From a virus (Duplodnaviria > Caudoviricetes): a stretch of 64,000 nucleotides of DNA. The translations under genes were made by a program, and so were the position numbers. Where the stretch lies: the IMG/VR virus record IMGVR_UViG_3300019378_000009, positions 45,429 to 109,428 of that record; one strand, written 5' to 3'. The notes beneath the pieces are model-generated. The model was not told the origin of the DNA, ran no database searches, and saw only the letters and a program-made list of their open reading frames with translations. Below, in pieces: positions 2,401 to 55,339 of this stretch; positions within the stretch are counted from its first letter, which is position 1; every line of letters starts with the position of its first letter.

Positions 2401-5400
2401 ATGAATATTAATACATATGCAAGCTTGCATAATCATTCAGAGATCTCCAATCTGAAGTTAATAGATAGCATAAACAAAATTGAAGATTTAATCCAATATG
2501 CCGTGGATTTAGGATTGGCAGGAGTGGCTATAACAGACCACGACTCTGTTGGCGGCCATGTTCGTGCATGGAATTATTACAACAGCCTGCCAGAAGAAGT
2601 AAGAAATAATTTTAAACTTATTCTTGGAAATGAGATTTATCTTTGTCGCAGTGACTTGACTGCAGAGACTCATCAAAAAGGCGAAAAATTTTATCATCTT
2701 ATTCTAATCGCTCTTGATGATATTGGTCACGAGCAAATTAGAGAATTAAGTACACGCGCTTGGTCTCGTTCTTATATGAAAGCAATTATGAGAACGCCAA
2801 CTTATAGTGAAGACTTGTTTGATATTATTGGCGCAAACCCGGGGCATGTTATAGCAACAACTGCTTGTCTTGGTGGATATTGTGGCTCGAAATATGCGCT
2901 CAGAGAATATGAAGCAATTGAAAGACATCTTGGTATGATGGAAGAGCTGTTTGGTAAAGAGAACTTTTTTATTGAACTACAACCCTCCAAACAATCTGAC
3001 CAGTTGATGTATAATAAATATATGGCTGCGACATATTGGGATAGATATAATTTTATTTGCACAACAGACTCGCACTATTTGAAAAAAGATGATGCAGCAA
3101 TTCATAAAGTATTCTTAAATTCTAAAAGCAGTGGTGACAGAGAAGTAGACAGTTTCTATGCCTCCGCTTATATGATGGGATTTAAAGAAATACAAGAATA
3201 TTTTGATAATGCTAATATGCATGACGAATTTATGCAAATGGCGGCAAATACACTTTCTATTTGCGAAAGAGTGCAAGGATATAATTTAAAACAAAACTCA
3301 ATTATACCTAAAATTAAATATGAAAATAATTCAGAATCTGTATTGGCAGTTAATTCTTTTATAGAATGGGCACAAACCATCACTTCTGATGTAGATTATA
3401 TTCTTAAAATGTTTACGGAAGTTAATCCCGCAGATGTTTATATGCTTTATCTTGTTTCTCAAGGTTGGCACAAAATTAAAGACCTACCAAATCAAGAAAA
3501 ATATATTGTAGAGTTAAACTACGAATGTGAACAATTATATAAAATTAGCAAGCAACTTGAACAAAGTATGAGCGACTATTTCATCACAATGGCAAAGATG
3601 ATTGACATTATGTGGGAAGAAGCTGGTACACTTGTTGGTCCGGCTCGTGGTTCCGCAGGTAGTAGTTTGATTGCATATTTACTGGGTATTACACAGATTA
3701 ATCCTCTTACTCAACCAGTAGAACTCCCATTCTGGCGCTTCCTACACGCAGAGAGACCTGGTCTTCCTGATATTGATATAGATACAGAAGCCGATAAGCG
3801 AGTTGCTGTATTTAATAAGGTAAGAGATTATTTCCAGTCTCTTGGTGGAGATATGATACACGTATGTACATACGGAACAGAAGGTAGTAAGTCTGCTATT
3901 AAAACCGCGGCAAGAGGTTTGGGTATAGATGATGATGTGGTTTCATATTTTAGTTCTATGATACCAAATGAACGTGGTTTTGACTGGACATTGAAACAAT
4001 GTTATCTTGGAGACGATGACCATCGCGCTATCCCCGCATTTAAAGCAGAAATGGATAAATATCCTATGTTGTGGAAAGTAGCAAGTGCCATTGAGGGCAT
4101 GATAACTAGATTAGGTTGTCATGCTTCTGGTGTATTAGCTCTTAACCAACCTATTTGGAAAAATAACGCAGCGATGAAAACCAGCAAAGGCATTCTGGTA
4201 ACCGCGTATGACCTGGAAGATACCGAGCAGTTAGGTGGAGTTAAATATGACTATCTTACTGTACAAGCACTGGATAAAATACATGTATGTATGAACTGGT
4301 TGCTTGAAGATAAGCATATAGAATGGCAAGGAGACTTGCGAAAAACATATACTAAATATATTTCACCTGATGCTATCAATTATACTGATAAAGGTATGTG
4401 GGATAGCTTGTGTAACAAAGAAATTCCTAGTACGTTCCAGTTTGATACGGCACAGGGAGGACAGGCAGTTAATCTTATTCAGCCGCATAGTTTACTCGAG
4501 TTGTTAACAGGAAACTCTGTCATGAGACTTATGGCTCAAGATGGTGGTGAGTTACCTTTGGAGATATACGCAAAACATAAGGCAGACATTAATATTTGGT
4601 ATAGAAAAATGCGCGAAGCAAACTTAAACGATGTAGAAATTCAAATTCTTGAATCACATTTGCTTCCCGTTTATGGTGTTGCGGCGTCGCAGGAGTCAAT
4701 GATGAAGTTGGCTATGGATGACAAGATTGCGGGCTTTACTATTGGTGAAGCGAACATTCTTCGTAAGGCAGTAGCAAAGAAAAAGAGAGATTTGCTTGAA
4801 AAAGGTAAAAATCTTTTCTATCAAAAAGGATTGGAAAGAGGAACCAGACTTGAGTTATTGGATTATGTATGGAATGTACAAATTATGACGCAGGCTGGTT
4901 ATTCATTCAGTGACATTCACACAACTGCATATTCATATATAGCAATTCAGGAAATGAATTTGTGTTATTTTTATCCTGATATTTATTGGAAAACTGCTTG
5001 TCTTTCTACAGATGCAGGCGCAATTAATGCAGAAGATTTTTATAACTTAAATGAGCAGAATATTGTAACGGCAACAGAAGAAGAAGATAAGCGTGAACAA
5101 AATAAGGTTCAATACGGTAAAATGGCAAGTGCCATTATTAAATTACAGGAATTTACTGAAGTTGCTCTGCCAGACATTAACAGCGCACGATTTGGTTTTA
5201 CACCAAATGAACAAGACAATAGCGTAATGTTTGGGTTGAGAGGAATTTCTCGCGTTGGAGAGCCAATTATTCAAGCAATATTAGCCAAAAGACCTTTCAC
5301 GTCTTTGGAAGACTTTTGTGAAAGAATGGTTGATGAAGATGGTAAGAAACAAATTAGTAAAGATAGGGTTGTTAATTTAATTAAGGCTGGTGCATTTAAC

Positions 5401-6330
5401 CATATAGAAAATAAAGCAAGAGCAGAAATCTTATCTGATTATTTGCATAAAACTTGTGAGCCAAAAAGTCGTTTGACATTACAGAATTTTGCTATGTTAA
5501 TTGCACATAACCTTATTCCGCAAGAATATAGTTATCAAATTAGAGTATATAATTTTACCAAATATATTCGCAAACAAAAGTTAGCAAGCAGTTATATTTT
5601 GGACTCAGTTGCGATGGATTTTTATATGGAAAATAACTATCCAATGACTTTTGTAAAACAAATGACCAATACAGATGGCATGATTGTAAATACAATTTCT
5701 AAAACTACTTGGGACAGCATATATGAAAGTGAAATGAATAAAGTTCGCGCTTTTATAAAAAGCAATCATGATGTTCTATTGAATAACTTAAATGAACAGT
5801 TGTTCGCGGCTGAGTGGAATAAGTATGCTAGCGGCGATGAGTTAAAATGGGAGCTTGATTCTATGAGTTTCTATTATAGCGGACATCCACTAACTAAGGT
5901 AGAATTGCCTATTGAAATTTCTGGAGTAAAAGACTTGGTTGAGAACGAGTTTGATGGCTTTTGGACAATCAAAGGTAAGCAAGTGCCTAAATATAGATTG
6001 AGAACCATTATTGGCGCGGTTATTGATAAAGATACCACTAAAGGTACATTTACTTTGTCGTGTCCAGACGGAGTAATTAATGTTAAGGTATTTAAGCAAC
6101 AATTTGCTCGATATGCGCACACTCTTTCTGAAACAGATGAAGAAGGAAATAAGACAGTGTTAGAAAATAGTTTCTTTGATAAGGGCACTTTTTTGGCTGT
6201 TACAGGCATTTTAAAAGGTGACACTTTTATGCCTAAAACTTATAGAAGCACTGGTTTTGATCCAATATTAAAAATTGTATTACAAGAAGATGGTTCATTA
6301 GATTATCTTATGCGCAAGGCGGAAGAATGA
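2401..6330 (+). CDS. dnaE: DNA polymerase III alpha subunit (DnaE type)
   Basis: PHP domain (HNHS, AITDH, TACLGG, DSHY), GPARGSAG, PDIDID catalytic motif, HASG, KYDYL, HhH (GISRVG) and C-terminal OB-like region. Confidence 0.96.
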   Translation: MNINTYASLHNHSEISNLKLIDSINKIEDLIQYAVDLGLAGVAITDHDSVGGHVRAWNYYNSLPEEVRNNFKLILGNEIYLCRSDLTAETHQKGEKFYHLILIALDDIGHEQIRELSTRAWSRSYMKAIMRTPTYSEDLFDIIGANPGHVIATTACLGGYCGSKYALREYEAIERHLGMMEELFGKENFFIELQPSKQSDQLMYNKYMAATYWDRYNFICTTDSHYLKKDDAAIHKVFLNSKSSGDREVDSFYASAYMMGFKEIQEYFDNANMHDEFMQMAANTLSICERVQGYNLKQNSIIPKIKYENNSESVLAVNSFIEWAQTITSDVDYILKMFTEVNPADVYMLYLVSQGWHKIKDLPNQEKYIVELNYECEQLYKISKQLEQSMSDYFITMAKMIDIMWEEAGTLVGPARGSAGSSLIAYLLGITQINPLTQPVELPFWRFLHAERPGLPDIDIDTEADKRVAVFNKVRDYFQSLGGDMIHVCTYGTEGSKSAIKTAARGLGIDDDVVSYFSSMIPNERGFDWTLKQCYLGDDDHRAIPAFKAEMDKYPMLWKVASAIEGMITRLGCHASGVLALNQPIWKNNAAMKTSKGILVTAYDLEDTEQLGGVKYDYLTVQALDKIHVCMNWLLEDKHIEWQGDLRKTYTKYISPDAINYTDKGMWDSLCNKEIPSTFQFDTAQGGQAVNLIQPHSLLELLTGNSVMRLMAQDGGELPLEIYAKHKADINIWYRKMREANLNDVEIQILESHLLPVYGVAASQESMMKLAMDDKIAGFTIGEANILRKAVAKKKRDLLEKGKNLFYQKGLERGTRLELLDYVWNVQIMTQAGYSFSDIHTTAYSYIAIQEMNLCYFYPDIYWKTACLSTDAGAINAEDFYNLNEQNIVTATEEEDKREQNKVQYGKMASAIIKLQEFTEVALPDINSARFGFTPNEQDNSVMFGLRGISRVGEPIIQAILAKRPFTSLEDFCERMVDEDGKKQISKDRVVNLIKAGAFNHIENKARAEILSDYLHKTCEPKSRLTLQNFAMLIAHNLIPQEYSYQIRVYNFTKYIRKQKLASSYILDSVAMDFYMENNYPMTFVKQMTNTDGMIVNTISKTTWDSIYESEMNKVRAFIKSNHDVLLNNLNEQLFAAEWNKYASGDELKWELDSMSFYYSGHPLTKVELPIEISGVKDLVENEFDGFWTIKGKQVPKYRLRTIIGAVIDKDTTKGTFTLSCPDGVINVKVFKQQFARYAHTLSETDEEGNKTVLENSFFDKGTFLAVTGILKGDTFMPKTYRSTGFDPILKIVLQEDGSLDYLMRKAEE

Positions 6331-7460
6331 TGATAGTTTTAATTTTAGATTTAGATTGGATATTTGATAAAAGCGAATTACCAAATGTAGATTGTATGAA
6401 GCTGTCGTCATTTCACAAGCAGCGCAAAGACACTGTATATTTTGTAGGAGATATGTCTGAGCTAACCATGACATATGATAGATTGTATGTATTCGGTGAA
6501 TCGGACAGCACTCCCACGATGAGTTCAAAAATTTTAAATGATGAACGCACAGTATTATTTGGAAAAAGATTTGAGTTATGTGGTGCTAAAAAGTTGGGTA
6601 CGGTAGTTATGGGATGTCGCCCTGATTATTTGCTTTATGATGTAACAGATGAAAAAAGTAACTCATATATAAAAGCTAATTTTGTAACTTTTTATACTGA
6701 TTGCGGCGAAAAAATACAAAAGCGACAATCTTGGAAAAATACAAAAAAGGGTGTAAAGCGTACTATAGTTACTGATACTACTTTATGGCGGCAAAAACCA
6801 GAAGAAATTGAACAGTGTTTTGAAGAATTAAAAGGCGAAAAAAATATTGTTTTTTTAGCACCAATTTCCATTAAATTTTTAATCGACAACAGAAGTGTTC
6901 AAGAAAAATTTTTTAGATTACATTTCTCAAAAGGTACAAAATTTAAGTGGAGAAATGATATTGGTAGCGACGAACAATCAGCACAAAAAATTGTGTCATT
7001 TTTAAATGATTTTCGTAAACATACAAAAAGCAACATTGGTGCAATCCCAATTCGCGCTATAGAACAGGGCGAAGTAGAATTGGAAAGTTTAAAACGACTT
7101 ATTAAAGTTTTTGCCATATTTAAACAAAATAAAATTAAATGCTTTTTGCCGCCAATAGAACATTTGGAGCGTATTACATTTCAATGGTTGCGTTCTTGGT
7201 GTGAAAAAGGATTTGAAAACAGTTTTATTGAGGAAATGGTATTTTTTGCTTCTGCTTCAAAAGGCACTAGATGGTTTCATATTATAAATGAGCCAAAATA
7301 TTGGGGTACGCAAAAAACGAAGTTTTTAATTAACTTATTGTGTTTTAATGAATGGAGAGAACTATTGCCACAAATGAGCGTACAATGGGGCAATAATAGC
7401 ATTGACTGTTCTTGTATAGACTTCAATATAATAGACAAATACGCATTTTCATTAATATAG
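6327..7460 (+). CDS. Hypothetical protein, possibly a degenerate radical-SAM-like protein
   Basis: PNVDCMKLSSFHK and RPDYLLY recall a phage radical SAM family, but no CxxxCxxC is present. Confidence 0.45.
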   Translation: MMIVLILDLDWIFDKSELPNVDCMKLSSFHKQRKDTVYFVGDMSELTMTYDRLYVFGESDSTPTMSSKILNDERTVLFGKRFELCGAKKLGTVVMGCRPDYLLYDVTDEKSNSYIKANFVTFYTDCGEKIQKRQSWKNTKKGVKRTIVTDTTLWRQKPEEIEQCFEELKGEKNIVFLAPISIKFLIDNRSVQEKFFRLHFSKGTKFKWRNDIGSDEQSAQKIVSFLNDFRKHTKSNIGAIPIRAIEQGEVELESLKRLIKVFAIFKQNKIKCFLPPIEHLERITFQWLRSWCEKGFENSFIEEMVFFASASKGTRWFHIINEPKYWGTQKTKFLINLLCFNEWRELLPQMSVQWGNNSIDCSCIDFNIIDKYAFSLI

Positions 7461-34029: not shown

Positions 34030-35070
34030 TTAGAAATAATCTTCTTCACTCGAACTATTGGTAGAAAAATCAGCATCTTCAAACAAATCACTCAAGTCAA
34101 CGTCCTCAGCCGCAAGCTGTGCGTCCAAGTCGCGATTCGCCGCAATAGCGTTGTCATTAATCAAATCTTCCAAAGATACTTCCGCAAACGCTTCTTCATT
34201 TGCATTTTCTTCTACCTTTTGCGCATAGGATTTAGAAATACTTTCAAGTGTCGCCGCAAGCCCAGTACAGTCTTGCACAAGCACCCTAATATATTCCTTA
34301 AAGTCCGCAATAGTTTTATCTACTACGTCTCTTTCTACGCCATCATAATACTTAAACTGTCCGCCACATTGTTCGATATAATCTCCCAAGTCGCTGACCG
34401 TCGAAATAACGTCTTTGTTGCTACTCTGAATTACGTCATCAATTTGCGCAGTTTTAGTAAATGTACTATATGCGCTCGTCAAATCTTTAATTCCTTTTGC
34501 GTCGCCCGCAAGTATAGCTTGGTCCAACTGAATGGAAATTCTAGCTGCTTTTTTAATTGCATCAATTTGAAGGGGATTGGTTATATCTCCGGCGCGCAAT
34601 GTGCTTACCAATAGACTATCCAATTGCACATATTCCTCAAAGGAATATTCTCCGCCCCATTTTATTTTCGCTCGCCGCATGAATTGCTCCTTTACTGGTT
34701 CAATTCCTGCAAGCAGCTCCGCAAACGTATTACAACGCTCCCATTCCGCATTAACTTCAGTCCACAGGTCTTTGGTACGTCCCTCTGCCCACATTACTGG
34801 GGTAGCAGGATTTTCATCAGCCCATAACTCCATGTAGGCGGCAAAAATGGTTTTGTTGCTTCCTAAACGCTCTTGTAGTTCGGTCCATTTGTCTGGCTTA
34901 AAGGGGATATTATAGGTGCGGCAAAAAAAGTTTGCCTGTTCGAGATTTTTCGGGTTAATTTGCTTTACTAAACAATCCAAGCAAGCGCTACCACTAATTG
35001 GATTATTTGTAGGCAATATTTCGGTTAGTTTGCCACAAAGGGCACATTTTCCAATCTTTAAAATACTCAT
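34030..35070 (-). CDS. Probable terminase small subunit with N-terminal Zn finger
   Basis: CALC...CLDC; DVVDKTI motif; directly upstream of terL; ATG at 35070 after AAAGGAGA. Confidence 0.6.
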   Translation of the reverse strand: MSILKIGKCALCGKLTEILPTNNPISGSACLDCLVKQINPKNLEQANFFCRTYNIPFKPDKWTELQERLGSNKTIFAAYMELWADENPATPVMWAEGRTKDLWTEVNAEWERCNTFAELLAGIEPVKEQFMRRAKIKWGGEYSFEEYVQLDSLLVSTLRAGDITNPLQIDAIKKAARISIQLDQAILAGDAKGIKDLTSAYSTFTKTAQIDDVIQSSNKDVISTVSDLGDYIEQCGGQFKYYDGVERDVVDKTIADFKEYIRVLVQDCTGLAATLESISKSYAQKVEENANEEAFAEVSLEDLINDNAIAANRDLDAQLAAEDVDLSDLFEDADFSTNSSSEEDYF

Positions 35071-45005: not shown

Positions 45006-45493
45006 ATCGTCCTTTTTCTTTTATCAAAATACAAAAGATAATCCATGGCAGAAATCGTGCCCGGGCTAACATGCGCCCGGGCCGCAAATTTGAACAAATC
45101 AAGTCTATTTTATTAACAAATTGTAAACTTTTCAATCAGAAGCAACACCTCCCTTCCACAGCTGTACACCGGATATCCCATTACCGTTACATGCCTCCCG
45201 AGTAATAAACCACCGGTAATAAGCAGCTATAAGCAGCAGCAGCACCACCTGTCCTTTGCCCATAAGCAGCAGCACAAATTTGACATAATTATTCAAATCC
45301 ACGAAAAAGCAGCTACAAGAAGCTGCAAAAATTTGAATTTTTATACGATTTATGATATAATATTTATAGAAAAAGAGGAAAAACAAGAAAAAATTACAAG
45401 CATTTCTGGAATATTTACGCATCGCCGCAGTAGGTGATAAAATAATGAATATGTAGATCTGGATATAATTATTACGAAAGGGGAAGCAAGAGA

Positions 45494-49074: not shown

Positions 49075-49373
49075 CGACAGAAAATTATATTTTTTAAACC
49101 ATGTTGAGCAGTAAAACGACTGCCGTACTGCTGACTGTTTGCGGCGAGATTTGACAAAAAACCAAAACTGTGTTATAATATTTATAGAAAAAAGGAAATG
49201 TTCCAAAGGCAAAGAGAGAATGATGAGGAGCATAGTCCATACAAACCGAATGGCGGACACGGAGAATGAAGCAAGTTACAAGAGTTTCTTGTTGTGTTGC
49301 GTCAATAGTTTTGCGGCAAGGAGCTTAGCCAACTTCTTGCCGTTTTTTTATAGTAAAACAAGGAGAAACATAA

Positions 49374-50072
49374 GTGGAAAAGATAGAAAGCAAATGGCTG
49401 TTCCCAGTGCGAATGGAGAACAGCAAAAGCATTGAATGGGTAGAAGATATTGTAGAGGCTTTTAGCAAGTTTAAGGCTCCGATTACGCAGGCAACTTGGG
49501 AACATTGTTTGCGGCGAGGGGTAGTAGGTGCAGGCACCCCCGAACACAACAAGTTGCTTAGGGAGTGGTGGAACACTGGTTGGCAGGAAATGCCTATCTT
49601 GCCCGCAAAGTGGGGAGGAACACCAGTAATGAAGATTACCCAACAAGTACTGGGACAAACTCTGGAATTGATATATCCAACAATAGAAAAGACTTGTGAG
49701 GCATTAGGGTGCGGCTTCCGTGCATTTAGAGATATTGCGCAAGGAATACACCCCAACCGCTACTTTGACGGAGAAGTGCGCCCTCTTAGACAGATTGCGG
49801 CAAAAGAGCTTCCCTATCCGCCTTGGACACTTTTCGCCGCAGACGATACTATCATAGGATATTTCCAAACCAAACAAGAAATGGCGGATTATTTGGGTAT
49901 TCACCATAAAATAATTGATGTGGCGCATAATAACAATTGGAACAAATTGGCAAGCGGCAAATGGTTTTGGTGCGAGAGGTGGGGATTTATGCCAATTAGC
50001 CCAGATGATGAACCTTTGGGTAGTAATTGGCGTGAAAAATATAGTCCAGATTACTCTCCTGGGGAGATTTGA
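49374..50072 (+). CDS. Hypothetical protein with NUMOD1/HTH-like DNA-binding segments
   Basis: IYPTIEKTCEALG and YFQTKQEMADYLGI; GTG start after AGGAG. Confidence 0.5.
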   Translation: MEKIESKWLFPVRMENSKSIEWVEDIVEAFSKFKAPITQATWEHCLRRGVVGAGTPEHNKLLREWWNTGWQEMPILPAKWGGTPVMKITQQVLGQTLELIYPTIEKTCEALGCGFRAFRDIAQGIHPNRYFDGEVRPLRQIAAKELPYPPWTLFAADDTIIGYFQTKQEMADYLGIHHKIIDVAHNNNWNKLASGKWFWCERWGFMPISPDDEPLGSNWREKYSPDYSPGEI

Positions 50073-50223
50073 CTTTTAGTCCAAAATAGGATATAATATA
50101 TATAGAAGTTAGAAAGCAATACTATATATTGTTTCTCTTGCTTAATAGTAGTGCGCGCTACTTTATATATAATAAACGAGAATGGGAATACCTGTTCTCG
50201 TTTTTTGTTTTTGGAGGTAAAAT

Positions 50224-50676
50224 ATGGATAGTAATTATTTTATGGGTGCACCCAATACCTATCGCGGATATGCTCCATCCTACTTATCTGCGATGAACGG
50301 TATGCCCTCAAACAGTAACCCAATGGGAGCAAATAACACTAACATAGTATGGGCTATGGGCATGGAAAGTGCCAAAGCATATCCCGTACTACCCGGCAAG
50401 ACAGTATTGTTAATGGATAGCGAAGGTCCTCATTTCTTCATCAAAACAGTGGACAACAACGGTTATGCCACTATGAAGAGCTATTCTTTCCAAGAAGACA
50501 TTCCCGTCGTGCCAAATCAGTCTGCGGCAAATTATGTTACTAAAGAACAGTTGGATGAAGTTGTTGCTAAGCTAATGACACATATTAAAACAGTATCAAC
50601 AGCAGAAGAAACAACCAAAACAACTATGGCGGAAACAAAGGCTGCGGAAGAACCCAAAGTAAAAAATCTATTGTGA
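50224..50676 (+). CDS. Five-gene cassette, gene 1 (hypothetical)
   Basis: Asn/Met-rich N-terminus, then IVW..G.ESAKAYPV.PG.TVLLMDSE...FFIKTVD..G and YVTKEQ; GGAGG RBS. Confidence 0.85.
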   Translation: MDSNYFMGAPNTYRGYAPSYLSAMNGMPSNSNPMGANNTNIVWAMGMESAKAYPVLPGKTVLLMDSEGPHFFIKTVDNNGYATMKSYSFQEDIPVVPNQSAANYVTKEQLDEVVAKLMTHIKTVSTAEETTKTTMAETKAAEEPKVKNLL

Positions 50677-50686
50677 GGAAAAAAGA

Positions 50687-51187
50687 ATGTATAATAACAA
50701 TGCAAACAATGTAAACCCTCTCTATACTCTTCTTGGCTTAACCGGTGGTGGACAAGGTCAAGGTCAAGGTGGCAGCCAACAAGGTGGTCAGCAAGGAGGA
50801 CAACAGGGAGGACAGCAACAAGGTGGTGGACAACAGGGTGGCGACCCTATGGAAACCCTTATGCAATTAATTGCGGCAATGGCTAGTGGTCAAAATGCTA
50901 TGAATGCATTAACAAGCATCATTCCCGCACTTGGTCAAAGAGTTCAAAATCACTCTCCCCAAGAACTCGAAAAATTTACTCGTAACGAGTACAATCGTCA
51001 AGGTATTGATATAAATGCGGCAATGAAACAATTGCAGGAAATGATGAATGCCGGTGGCTATAATGTAAACAATGGCGGCTACAATGGCGGATATAATACC
51101 AATAACGGTGGATATAACGCAGGAAATGGCGGCGGCTATAACGCAAACAATAATCAAAATAACACAAATACTAATAACAACTTTTAA
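50687..51187 (+). CDS. Five-gene cassette, gene 2 (Gly/Gln/Asn-rich low-complexity protein)
   Basis: QGG repeats and NGGYN repeats flanking a helical core. Confidence 0.8.
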   Translation: MYNNNANNVNPLYTLLGLTGGGQGQGQGGSQQGGQQGGQQGGQQQGGGQQGGDPMETLMQLIAAMASGQNAMNALTSIIPALGQRVQNHSPQELEKFTRNEYNRQGIDINAAMKQLQEMMNAGGYNVNNGGYNGGYNTNNGGYNAGNGGGYNANNNQNNTNTNNNF

Positions 51188-51260
51188 GAGAGAATGAGCT
51201 AAGTCGACGGCTTATTCTCTTTTTATTTTTTAAAAATTATGTTTAAGGAGGTAATTAAAC

Positions 51261-53050
51261 ATGGAAACAGCAATGCTTAGTCCCGCTGATGCTATGCTTT
51301 TGGGACAAAATAATGGATTTGGAAACAACGGTGCTTGGATTTGGGTGCTCTTGTTAGCGTTCCTTTGGGGCGGTAACGGCTACGGATTCGGTAACAACCG
51401 TGGAGGAAATGGTATGTATAGTGACTTTATAGACGGTAGCGCGACAAGAGCAGCCGTAAATAGCGGATTCCAATACAATCAGCTTGATAATGGTATTCGT
51501 GGTATCCAGAACGGATTGTGTGATGGTTTCTATGCAGTCAATAGCAGCTTAAAAGACGGCTTCTATGGAACGCAGGGCGCTATTAAAGATTGCTGCTGCA
51601 ACTTGAGAAGCGAACTTGCAGACTGCTGCTTAAATTGTGTGGCAGCCTAAACAAGCAATTGTTTAGTTAAAAATTCGGTGAATTGCTGGGAAGCTAAAAG
51701 ATAGACAAAATTTGACTTCTTGTCGATATTAGAGTATAATATAGATAGAAAAACATATGGAGGTCAATTTTATGTTTTATGTGTATGAATGGTATAATAT
51801 AGATACTAAAGAAATTTTTTATGTTGGCAAAGGCTGCAATCGTCGTTATAAAATTGTAGCAGGAAGAAATGAAGATTTTTTAAACTATCACGCCAATCAC
51901 AATGTAGATGTAAGGATAGTTAAAGAATTTGAAAAAGAAGAAGATGCTTTTAAATACGAAGAAGAATTAATACAACTATATTGGAAACAAGGACAACCTC
52001 TGTGCAATCGTAAAGAGGGTGGAAATGGCGGCGTTGCTGGAATTTGGACAGACGAAATGCGAGAAAAAATGTCCAAAGAAAACCCAATGAAAGCAGAAGA
52101 ACAAAGGTTAAGAATGTCTATTCACAATCCTATGAAAGAACCTGAGGTGGCTCGAAAAGTAGGAATTGCGAATTCAGAACCAGTCATATTAAACGGTGTT
52201 TATTATGAAAGTACGGGTGAAGCAGCACGAAGCTTAAATAAACATATAAAAACCATAAGAACTTGGTGCAAAAGAGGTTATGACACTGATGGTAATCCTT
52301 GTCGTTATGCAAATAAAGAACAAGCATCCTATACTTTCAAGCGCACTTGTTCTAAACCAGTTTTAGTAGATGGTCAATGGTTTCCATCTGTTAAAGCTGC
52401 GGCGAATTTTATAGGAGTTAATGATAGTTCTCCATTAGTAAAAGCATTAAAAGCCAACAAAACATACTACGGACACATAGTATCTTATGCTAATCAGCAG
52501 CCAAGCGAGGAGAATTCCTAAATAGTATCCTCGAAGGTTCAACGACTAATGGGTGAGGAAGGATACCAATAATCCCAACACGAGTGCCGAACTCCAAATG
52601 ATATTTGGATGAAGATATAGTCTGAACTATATGGAAACATATAGAAGTATGAGATAAAGAACTCATACGATAACACTGGTTCGTGGCACAACGAATCGCA
52701 ATATTGATGCGCTTAGATACGATATGAGCAAGGGCTTCTGCGACGTGGTTACAGCTAACAACTTAAACACTCGCGACATCCTTGAGTCTCAGAATGCTAA
52801 CACTCAACGCATACTTGACTACATCAACTGCAACGAGAAACAGGCATTGAGAGATCGCATCCAGACTTTGGAAACCAGCGGTATTATACAAGCTCAGACA
52901 AAGAACCTTGTAGATACTCTTAGACCTTGCCCAATCCCTGCATATATCACATGCAGTCCTTTCCAATCATACACAGTTAATCCTTATGGTGGCGGTGTAG
53001 GATATGGATACGGTGCAGGCTATGGTTACGGATGCGGCTGCGGCATCTAA
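51261..53050 (+). CDS. Five-gene cassette, gene 3, spliced: join(51261..51630,52686..53050), 244-aa Gly/Asn/Cys-rich protein
   Basis: Removing the intron restores frame and gives ...ELADCCCTTNRNIDALRYD...; hydrophobic WIWVLLLAFLWGG segment, two CCC motifs, LRPCPIPAY and YGCGCG end. Confidence 0.88.
51631..52685 (+). mobile_element. Group I self-splicing intron
   Basis: P (AATTGCTGGGAA), Q (AATCAGCAG), R (GTTCAACGACTA), S (AAGATATAGTCT); P1 GCTGCT/GGCAGC with U.G at the 5' splice site; P10 TTGTGT/GCACAA; terminal G at 52685. Confidence 0.93.
51772..52521 (+). CDS. Intron-encoded GIY-YIG homing endonuclease
   Basis: YVY...FYVGKG..RR, EEELI, N...GG catalytic domain; NUMOD-like repeats; own promoter (TTGACT-17-TATAAT at 51712-51740). 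Confidence 0.88.
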   Translation: MFYVYEWYNIDTKEIFYVGKGCNRRYKIVAGRNEDFLNYHANHNVDVRIVKEFEKEEDAFKYEEELIQLYWKQGQPLCNRKEGGNGGVAGIWTDEMREKMSKENPMKAEEQRLRMSIHNPMKEPEVARKVGIANSEPVILNGVYYESTGEAARSLNKHIKTIRTWCKRGYDTDGNPCRYANKEQASYTFKRTCSKPVLVDGQWFPSVKAAANFIGVNDSSPLVKALKANKTYYGHIVSYANQQPSEENS

Positions 53051-53108
53051 TAATTAAATAAATGTCAGAGGGAGTGCTTGTTACTCCCTCTTTGATTTGG
53101 AGGTTAAA

Positions 53109-53456
53109 ATGGCGAAATGTAGAATTTTACGAGCTTCTTTAGCAGTAGATGGAGCAAACATAACTTTAACGCTTCCTAATACAGAAGAAGCTCTAACAAA
53201 TAGAGATGTTTTAAGGTTTTATATTACAGCAAATATTCCGGAAGATAATCCTCTAGGAACGGTGTCTGTAATTGTGAATGGCACAACCTTTCCTTTAACA
53301 ACTATTCTGGGCAATTCGGTGCGTACAGAACAGCTAAGAAGCAGATTTGTATATACAATACAGTTGGGAGCAGAAACACCTAACTTTGTAATGAAAACTT
53401 GCTTACCTGAAACTTCTTTTGTTTATCCTGCATATGCAGCACCTGCGGTGGTATAA
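53109..53456 (+). CDS. Five-gene cassette, gene 4 (small beta-rich protein)
   Basis: GGAGG RBS; alternating hydrophobic beta pattern. Confidence 0.75.
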   Translation: MAKCRILRASLAVDGANITLTLPNTEEALTNRDVLRFYITANIPEDNPLGTVSVIVNGTTFPLTTILGNSVRTEQLRSRFVYTIQLGAETPNFVMKTCLPETSFVYPAYAAPAVV

Positions 53457-53457
53457 G

Positions 53458-53904
53458 ATGCATAAGGCTAACATAGATCATATAATTAAACAAGGCACCT
53501 TTCAACAAATGGAAGAGATGCGGGAAGTTTTGGTTGAGGCAATTAGCAAACTAAAAGAATTTTCTCCAACTTCATATAGTGAAGTGGAGTTTGATTTACA
53601 TAAGATAGCTCACAACGGCAAGCTGGGAGAAGACTTGGCAAAGAAGTGGGTGTCTTGCATGCAGAACAAAGACGGTACTACTGGAGAACATTGGACGTGG
53701 GATCAAGTTCTACAAGTACAAAAAGATAAAAAGATTGGTACGGACCCCGGAGAGGTTTATGCAGTATTGAATATGATGTATAGCGATTATTACAATCCGA
53801 AGTTCGATACCAATGTATATGTGGAAATGACAAAAGACTGGATTAATGATCCAGATGTACAAGATTATAAAACCTTGAAATATTACTACTATGTAGTACA
53901 TTAA
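53458..53904 (+). CDS. Five-gene cassette, gene 5 (helical protein)
   Basis: WV..MQNKDGTTGEHWT, LNMMYSDY, WINDPD and K..KYY motifs. Confidence 0.8.
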   Translation: MHKANIDHIIKQGTFQQMEEMREVLVEAISKLKEFSPTSYSEVEFDLHKIAHNGKLGEDLAKKWVSCMQNKDGTTGEHWTWDQVLQVQKDKKIGTDPGEVYAVLNMMYSDYYNPKFDTNVYVEMTKDWINDPDVQDYKTLKYYYYVVH

Positions 53905-53908
53905 CACT

Positions 53909-53936
53909 AGCAGCGGGACTTGTTCTCGCTGCTTTA
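53909..53936 (+). terminator. Terminator closing the five-gene cassette
   Basis: AGCAGCGGGA-loop-TCTCGCTGCT-TT. Confidence 0.7.
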
Positions 53937-55138: not shown

Positions 55139-55215
55139 GCTCCCGTAGTCCAACCGGAAGAGACAGGGGACTTAAAATCCCTCCAGTGTGGGTTCGAATC
55201 CCATTGGGAGCACCA
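55139..55215 (+). tRNA. tRNA-Leu(TAA) with short variable loop
   Basis: Acceptor GCTCCCG/TGGGAGC, anticodon arm GGGGA-CTTAAAA-TCCCT, T arm GTGGG-TTCGAAT-CCCAT, encoded ACCA. Confidence 0.9.
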
Positions 55216-55339
55216 GTGAGAGTTTATTTCTTTTTTCTTTCTTTTGAAGAGCGAAGTAAAATTCGCTCTTTTTTATTTTTGAATTTTTGCGCAATTTGTG
55301 ATATAATATATATGTAAGAAAGAAAGAAAGGAAATAATT

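Follow-up and report, generated by a model that had tools for sequence, protein, structure and literature searches.

Accessory side tail fibers of tailed phages, such as lambda Stf/Tfa, T5 pb1 and Pa193 gp47, are dispensable, are encoded after the essential tail genes, and combine a conserved proximal part with an exchangeable tip. A different kind of fiber end is known from the exosporium nap of Bacillus, where the C-terminal domain of BclA (PF18573), which has a C1q/TNF-like fold, forms a small trimeric beta knob. Here we analyze a five-gene cassette (g1 to g5) of a virus of the Caudoviricetes (IMG/VR record IMGVR_UViG_3300019378_000009). The stretch of DNA that was analyzed, called the window in the following, comprises 64,000 nucleotides (positions 45,429 to 109,428 of that record), and the five open reading frames (ORFs) are located on its plus strand at positions 50224-53904. 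The source record is a complete phage genome of 109,428 base pairs (bp) with direct terminal repeats, which encodes a PolC-like polymerase and a tape-measure protein of 1,919 amino acids (aa) and has its structural module on the minus strand. Our results demonstrate that the cassette is a very widespread, horizontally mobile and dispensable unit of tailed phages. At somewhat less than an even chance, we think that it builds an accessory tail-associated fiber or an envelope-penetration device.

Scanning of viral contigs with the g3 family gave at least 292 confirmed loci and scanning of species-representative genomes gave 220 loci, and co-occurrence of the cassette genes was counted in 164 loci fetched from those scans. 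A g1 gene accompanied g3 in 155 of the 164 loci and was located directly upstream of g2-g3, g2 was present with g3 in 125 loci, and g4 followed g3 in 88. The g5 gene was found with g3 in 32 loci, in many genome loci directly after g4 as in the window, and gene order and strand were the same as in the window throughout. A sequence-only reading of this DNA, made without database searches, had mentioned similar gene sets from gut Clostridia phages and had proposed a neighborhood search as a check; the recurrence is real and extends greatly beyond these phages, and g1, g2, g3 and a gene in the fourth slot co-occur elsewhere in the same order. The same reading had spoken of a self-contained five-gene operon, which is correct in that g1-g5 is one transcription unit, but what recurs is a g1-g2-g3 core with a fourth slot of variable content and, facultatively, g5. 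At 90% identity the g3 family forms 6,975 clusters, in which there was neither a functional name given by the sources nor a Pfam domain, and at 50% identity it has 2,847 representatives. As had been supposed for the set as a whole, members of the families carry no tested function. Labels like 'spike protein/glycoprotein', 'viral fiber' or 'lateral tail fiber chaperone' in public records stand as deposited, and neither the grounds for them nor a functional test is given.

The phages phiCP39-O, 26F, 9O, 13O and 34O match the flanks of the locus of Clostridium perfringens phage CPQ4 at 97-98% nucleotide identity and lack the 3.2 kb that hold g1, g2, g3, g4 and a gene for a 66-aa protein. As phages without the cassette form plaques, the cassette is an accessory, dispensable unit.

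Carriers were found in Lachnospiraceae, Oscillospiraceae, Christensenellales, Bacilli, Negativicutes and Melainabacteria, and in two cases the cassette was located inside long bacterial contigs, of 545 kb from Phascolarctobacterium and of 172 kb from a melainabacterium; many other genome hits are phage-sized contigs that were binned into metagenome-assembled genomes and whose host labels are uncertain. Cultured carriers are the Butyrivibrio phage Ceridwen, six C. perfringens phages and the Bacteroides uniformis phage C3_41T2LP. The full cassette is present in the cultured C. perfringens and Butyrivibrio phages, and C3_41T2LP has g3, a g4-like gene, a gene for a coiled-coil protein, a possible g1 analogue (E-value (E) 0.22) and a DUF7841 gene, g2 not being detected. 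Phages of the crAss-like Suoliviridae carry DUF7841, g3 and a g4-like gene, in this order, in the region of their tail genes and next to genes with holin and LysB/FtsL-like annotations. Homologues of g3 are also found in phages of Escherichia coli, Salmonella and Shigella, including the E. coli K-12 phages CAjan, JenK1/JenP1, egaa and herni and a BASEL phage, and the homologue with a CCCETN motif in 9g-like and T1-like enterobacterial phages was recognized by a hidden Markov model (HMM) search with E 9e-9 and by hhalign with 98.7%. When the neighbors of the enterobacterial g3 homologues were compared with profiles of g1, g2, g4 and g5, none matched at 40% probability or more, which is a weak result as the targets were single sequences. 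In the T5-like Salmonella phage polluks (locus L174, NC_102110, 3790-4400), a g3 homologue sits directly after the pb5-like receptor-binding gene and is broken by several in-frame stops, and it is therefore a decaying copy.

In most carriers the cassette follows the last tail, tail-fiber or receptor-binding genes, or the lysis genes. Examples flanked in this way are loci L088, L093, L117, L129, L136, L139, L142 and L151, the T1-like phage pSf-1, the T5-like phage and the crAss-like phage cr53_1. In cr53_1 (L169, NC_055889), in-frame stops (table 11) occur in the annotated 'holin' gene and in the ORF after the g4-like gene (regions 2700-3209 and 5937-6500), and this pattern in the sequence suggests that the phage uses stop-codon recoding.

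The fourth slot of the cassette is variable. The AlphaFold2 model of the window's g4 is all-beta, in agreement with the beta-rich protein that had been expected from its sequence, and in structure searches the sole match that stood out was the trimeric bead III of the Pa193 tail fiber gp47 (Foldseek E 1.5e-3; root-mean-square deviation 3.3 Å over 93 residues), although its Z of 6.5 lies under Z 8, the level at which chance arrangements become rare. Searches of the ESM Atlas with g4 led to viral hypothetical clusters only. In loci that lack g4, the same slot holds a different beta-rich protein of 130-160 aa. Such alternative proteins (130-150 aa in many phages) often match the BclA C-terminal domain BclA_C, the best of them with E 8e-9 and 35.6 bits as compared to a Pfam cut-off of 38, and a Pfam search with the window's own g4 gave no BclA_C match. 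When two loci have 50-70% identity in g3, the family present in the slot differs in 59% of the pairs; at 90% identity or more it still differs, in 9 of 90 pairs. The fourth slot is thus occupied by an exchangeable, small all-beta protein after g3, which belongs to the g4 family here and has a BclA_C/C1q-like domain in other phages. The facultative g5 that follows is a DUF7841 protein, and this domain was matched by 29 of 31 members of the g5 family. In crAss-like and Bacteroides phages, the DUF7841 gene is adjacent to g3. In the ESM Atlas, the nearest clusters to g5 outside DUF7841 carry the primase C-terminal domain PriCT_2 (score 0.95), and HMMER gave no support for this lead in the 31 family members. 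A literature search for DUF7841 found no mention of it.

Of all cassette genes, g3 is the best conserved, and g1 and g2 diverge faster. After removal of a group I intron, described below, the g3 product of the window has 244 aa. Features that the sequence-only reading had listed for it are present on the spliced product: a G/N-rich head, one hydrophobic segment at about residues 24-36, two CCC clusters among a total of 13 cysteines, and a GYGYG...GCGCG tail. The body is mostly helical, with one very long helix. Throughout the family 6-15 cysteines follow the anchor, and the invariant cysteine clusters are CCC-x-T-x-R, CPIPAY and a C-terminal GCGC. In an AlphaFold2 monomer model of a g3 homologue, the hydrophobic segment is helical and a further helix extends over about 80 residues, a pattern typical of fibrous oligomers folded as monomers. 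Of the membrane-anchored fiber that had been suggested earlier, the anchored-fiber architecture is retained, in view of the hydrophobic N-terminal segment, the long helix in the model of the homologue, the cysteine clusters and a natural fusion of g3 and g4.

In that fusion (P0122), g3 is joined in frame to g4. Fused to the N-terminal half of g3 were, in P0133 and P0130, a tail protein of Blautia-phage-like type that includes a Peptidase_S74 chaperone domain, in P0132 an SGNH esterase, and in P0136 a part like the distal tube of phi29 gp9 (E 2e-10); the C-terminal half occurs at the end of Dit-like tail proteins (P0128, P0129). A comparison of P0128 with the tail protein encoded upstream in Dulem virus 36 showed no similarity. 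With cassettes located after tail or fiber genes in many lineages and with parts of g3 fused in frame, the linkage to tail proteins holds.

In the device that we favor, g3 would be an anchored, cysteine-stapled stalk, the protein of the fourth slot (g4 in the window) an exchangeable knob at the distal end of this stalk, and g1 and g2 adaptors or assembly partners that are translated in step with each other. Adjacent cysteines at the ends of coiled coils act as interchain staples in extracellular fibrous proteins, and the clusters of g3 might form disulfide staples of this kind. By reading of the N-termini, with no predictor run, g1, g2, g4 and g5 have neither a signal peptide nor a lipobox, and assembly would therefore be cytoplasmic, as it is for virions. 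The kept order g1-g2-g3-slot 4, the site after tail genes, the fusions to tail proteins, the possibly fiber-like fold of g4, the exchangeable tip and a dispensability like that of side fibers all argue for such a device. We infer from them that g3 would form an oligomeric fiber, that this fiber would be located on the virion, and that it may have a role in recognition or penetration of the host envelope.

Several observations weigh against this proposal. The g3 segment is so hydrophobic that it looks like a membrane anchor, which would be unusual for an external fiber of a virion, and it is the central cysteine/helix region that is most conserved across phyla, whereas receptor-binding fibers would be expected to conserve their N-terminal anchor. 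The monomer model of the g3 homologue is poor (predicted local distance difference test, pLDDT, of 45), too poor for a fold search. Most of the fusions are single metagenomic sequences and possibly artefacts, and some other long forms of g3 are obvious chimeras with bacterial enzymes, so that single fusions have to be treated with caution. In several phages, including that of the window, the cassette lies among non-structural genes; in XP41-N3 and CPQ4 it follows an antirepressor gene and precedes Gam/Erf, and in C3_41T2LP it comes after recombination genes. The cassette has also passed between phages with unrelated virions, among them siphoviruses and crAss-like podoviruses as well as T1-like and 9g-like phages, and this is easier to understand if no docking site on the virion is needed. 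Furthermore, the literature on Ceridwen, phage 9g and the C. perfringens phages gives neither a function nor virion data for the cassette genes.

Some of these observations would be accommodated if the cassette acted in the infected or lysogenic cell, where a bitopic g3 stalk might hold the knob at the membrane and either exclude other phages at the stage of DNA entry or organize a phage process. We take this main rival to be unlikely, yet it has to be considered seriously, as it accounts for the hydrophobic anchor better than a virion fiber does, and the portability between virion types and the place among non-structural genes follow from it as well. In g3, the N-tail has a more acidic character than the residues behind the anchor, and this charge distribution leans to an N-out, C-in topology, but only weakly; partner proteins without signal peptides would make a complex at the cytoplasmic face self-consistent. 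The cassette is bounded by a promoter and a terminator of its own, is present or absent between near-identical phages, often adjoins recombination or replication genes and, in temperate phages, lies between the lysis genes and the integrase gene, and the pseudogene in the T5-like phage is the next gene behind the receptor-binding gene, at the place of llp in T5. The proximity of g5 to PriCT_2 clusters would point in the same direction, but lacks the HMMER support mentioned above. Moreover, the fused forms of g3 involve tail proteins, an esterase and a fiber chaperone domain, none of which fits the cytoplasmic face, and known exclusion proteins are encoded by single lineage-specific genes, not by sets of four or five genes kept across phyla. 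It is likewise doubtful, although conceivable, that a previously unrecognized non-virion machine with a membrane-anchored stalk, an exchangeable recognition knob and partners of largely low-complexity sequence is shared across phyla, from T1-like coliphages to crAss-like and Clostridia phages, and serves in the infected cell to keep out competitors or to organize infection at the membrane.

An accessory role in lysis, with g3 acting like an i-spanin or like a class III holin/antiholin with a large non-cytoplasmic domain that tunes envelope disruption, is improbable. The outline of g3 does resemble that of lambda Rz or T4 T, with an N-terminal transmembrane segment, a helical, cysteine-containing body and, in the coliphage homologues, a Pro-rich end; the cassette adjoins holin/endolysin genes in many phages, g3 of crAss-like phages adjoins the genes annotated as holin and LysB/FtsL-like, and the authors who described phage 9g could not find a complete lysis module in it (PMC4276943), which we counted in favor of this role. 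However, no lipoprotein partner is visible among g1, g2, g4 and g5, most hosts are Clostridia and have one membrane only, the carriers have holins and lysins of their own besides the cassette, the window ORFs within about 3 kb of the cassette include no recognized lysis gene, and phages without the cassette lyse normally. The sequence-only reading had instead proposed a modification of the spore surface or exosporium of infected spore-formers, and to this we give hardly any credence. It is true that the proteins are rich in Cys, Gly and Tyr and need no signal peptide, as is the case for coat proteins, that the alternates in the fourth slot match the BclA C-terminal domain, and that a small gene like sigma-70 region 4/GerE is often located upstream of the cassette. 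The BclA_C matches remain under the Pfam cut-off, though, and the window's g4 gives none. The cassette occurs in prophages and phages of Phascolarctobacterium, Melainabacteria, Bacteroides and Butyrivibrio and in crAss-like phages, and g3 in enterobacterial phages such as those of E. coli; this host range beyond spore-formers rules out a spore-specific role. In addition, the genome gave no Spore_GerQ match at E up to 10, and no coat family was found for g1-g5 in Pfam or NCBIfam.

The coordinates of the cassette are listed in the table below. The window phage has many short plus-strand cassettes with consensus promoters of the sigma-70 type, and the five ORFs g1-g5 are located between a near-consensus promoter of this type and a terminator, with strong hairpins between genes; g1-g5 is one transcription unit. 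The two hairpins between genes that had been noted from the sequence are real, and both are much stabler than shuffled sequence. The hairpin of the leader suggests a possible attenuator, by which the unit may be controlled through attenuation or antitermination.

Features of the g1-g5 unit in the window, with positions counted from the first nucleotide of the window
Feature	Position	Strand	Size and evidence
Sigma-70-type promoter TTGACT-17-TATAAT	50069-50097	+	11/12 consensus; same type as many others of the phage
Leader hairpin, terminator-like, with U run	50174-50203	+	13-bp stem; leader fold z -3.6; immediately 5' of the g1 ribosome-binding site
g1: N/M-rich head, small conserved domain, C-terminal helical part	50224-50676	+	150 aa; phrog_21718, E 9e-16
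g2: small helical core, flanked in the window by QGG and NGGYN low-complexity expansions	50687-51187	+	166 aa
g2-g3 intergenic hairpin with U run	51186-51223	+	15 bp; -23.3 kcal/mol; z -4.7
g3 exon 1: acidic N-tail, hydrophobic Gly-flanked segment, GLCDGFY motif, first CCC cluster	51261-51630	+	phrog_16490, E 9e-17
Group I intron	51631-52685	+	1,055 nucleotides; Rfam RF00028, 48.8 bits, E 2.4e-10 (slightly below gathering score 50)
Promoter of the intron	51712-51740	+	
Intron gene for GIY-YIG/NUMOD1 homing endonuclease	51757-52521	+	phrog_314, E 2e-16
g3 exon 2: second half of CCC-TTNRNID motif, long helix, CPIPAY motif, G/Y/C tail	52686-53050	+	phrog_16490, E 2.5e-9
g3-g4 intergenic hairpin	53067-53091	+	10 bp; z -3.4
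g4: small all-beta 'knob', divergent Cys-poor family member	53109-53456	+	115 aa; AlphaFold2 pLDDT 78
g5: DUF7841 protein	53458-53904	+	148 aa; Pfam PF25223, E 3e-17, 63.3 bits (cut-off 25.2)
Terminator-like hairpin ending the unit	53909-53933	+	

The g3 gene is interrupted by the group I intron, and the splice sites are defined by a DNA contig of sequencing run X12, a relative with 90-95% identity, which joins position 51630 directly to 52686 and lacks exactly the 1,055 nucleotides in between. U51630 precedes the 5' splice site and G52685 is the last base of the intron, and a short P1 stem can be drawn in which GCUGCU (51625-30) pairs with GGCAGC (51641-46). After joining, the g3 frame is open and reads ADCC-C-TTNRNID, like that of the intron-less homologues. 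A protein alignment would place the 5' splice site after 51597, which is incorrect: there are two copies of the motif GAY-TGC-TGC-T, and by the contig that lacks the intron the site is after 51630. The intron endonuclease matched Pfam NUMOD1 with 24.6 bits (cut-off 22.8), and its GIY-YIG match was weak (E 0.0024). Phage CPQ4 has a related intron with an endonuclease at the homologous site of its g3, which means that the intron targets the most conserved g3 motif. In the CPQ4 record (L171, MZ401006; 1638-3300), g3 exon 1 and the intron endonuclease are annotated as separate hypothetical proteins and exon 2 is left unannotated.

Among the partner proteins, g1 and g2 have the composition that had been read from their sequences. 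The first 45 residues of g1 contain 18% N and 13% M, and g2 consists of 20% G, 19% N and 14% Q and has 6 QGG and 5 GGYN motifs. Relatives of g2 usually have just 57-100 aa, and low-complexity tracts are frequent among relatives of g1, g2 and g5. At the NGGYN tract of g2 (51123-51132), a contig of run X11 has 23 other letters, so that close relatives differ in how long the low-complexity tail of g2 is. Searches of Pfam, NCBIfam and PDB sequences gave no significant match for any of g1-g4. There is a slight overlap between g1 and g2, and g2 begins at a start of its own; among 121 loci, g2 uses the +1 frame in 86, and in 104 its own start is preceded by a Shine-Dalgarno sequence. We had considered that g1-g2 is a pair of tail assembly chaperones (G/GT) with a programmed -1 frameshift, encoded before a tape-measure-like protein, and this was rejected by the frame of g2 and its own start. 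A GerQ-like nature of g1, which had also been considered, found no support in searches.

Outside the cassette, the window contains further promoters of the same kind. Between positions 35000 and 45000 there are 25 plus-strand sites of the form TTGACA/T-17-TATAAT that match 11-12 of 12 consensus positions, are located before small ORFs and mostly have an extended -10 TG. The structural operon on the minus strand has a promoter of the same type at 35123-35095. The promoter type was considered as a clue for timing and then dropped: since the structural operon shares it, early and late genes of the phage cannot be told apart by promoter sequence alone. The ORF that immediately precedes the cassette (49374-50072; 232 aa), with a perfect 12/12 promoter at 49151-49179 and a weak NUMOD1 match (E 0.009), may encode a free-standing DNA-binding protein resembling homing endonucleases. 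About 1.2 kb downstream of the cassette, a gene for tRNA-Leu (anticodon UAA; 55139-55215, 53.8 bits) is followed by a terminator-like hairpin at 55246-55271. In other phages, a protein of 76-86 aa that consists only of a helix-turn-helix like that of sigma-70 region 4 (Pfam E 6e-8; phrog_36) is often encoded directly upstream of g1, for example at 3496-3738 of locus L010, and no equivalent was seen in the window. A phrog_17879 protein of 175-250 aa often follows the cassette (L010, 5987-6580; phiCP39-O, L176, 2640-3167); it is annotated as 'contains ferritin domain' in phiCP39-O, and one relative matches Rubrerythrin at 1e-5. As it is also encoded by phages without the cassette, it is a neighbor and not a member.

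In summary, g3 and the genes around it rank among the more common of those gene sets in gut phages that lack an annotation. In the manner of a mobile accessory unit, the cassette is spread over different phage families and host phyla, and a homing intron targets the motif that is conserved best within it. With g3 in E. coli phages and the cassette in cultured phages, its role can be tested by ordinary genetics and proteomics. Whether it is a new accessory fiber or a new membrane device, either answer, if true, would annotate thousands of phage genes at once.

Among known systems, phi29 p16.7, the membrane-anchored coiled-coil organizer of replication, resembles g3 in having an N-terminal anchor, a coiled coil and a functional C-terminal end, and it is established for phi29 that p16.7 is non-essential and encoded among non-structural genes. 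However, p16.7 and g3 have no sequence similarity, g3 is rich in cysteines and has four partners, and no significant DNA-binding domain was detected. The receptor-linked exclusion genes llp of T5 and cor of T1 and phi80 are comparable in position, as the g3 homologues of T1-like and T5-like phages come directly after tail-fiber or receptor-binding genes, and they are likewise accessory, easily lost and membrane-associated; Llp and Cor are, however, single small lipoproteins directed at one receptor, whereas the cassette consists of several genes, is found across phyla and has no lipobox. The i-spanins lambda Rz and P2 LysB and the T4 holin T agree with g3 in outline only, with their N-terminal transmembrane segment, large helical domain with conserved cysteines and proximity to lysis genes; in crAss-like phages, the LysB/FtsL-like gene, the DUF7841 gene and g3 follow one another in this order. 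They differ in that the cassette offers no outer-membrane lipoprotein partner and no Pfam or PHROG lysis family, is common among phages whose hosts have a single membrane and is not needed for normal lysis. With the BclA C-terminal domain the cassette shares, by the matches in the fourth slot of many phages, a small trimer-forming beta knob of the kind found at a fiber end. In contrast to BclA, there is no collagen-like stalk, the matches stay below the Pfam cut-off, the g4 of the window belongs to another family and the hosts extend beyond spore-formers.

The accessory side tail fibers differ from the cassette in that they lack the transmembrane-like segment, the CCC clusters and the G/Y/C tail of g3, and no sequence family is common to both; the tip of the cassette would be a separate small protein, accompanied by two partners rich in low-complexity sequence. 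They agree with it in gene position, in dispensability, in the combination of a conserved proximal part with an exchangeable tip, in a possible resemblance of the g4 model to bead III of Pa193 gp47, and in the fusion of g3 pieces to tail proteins and to the Peptidase_S74 fiber chaperone domain. The cassette may be an accessory fiber-like module built from unknown families, with a real chance that it represents something further from known systems.

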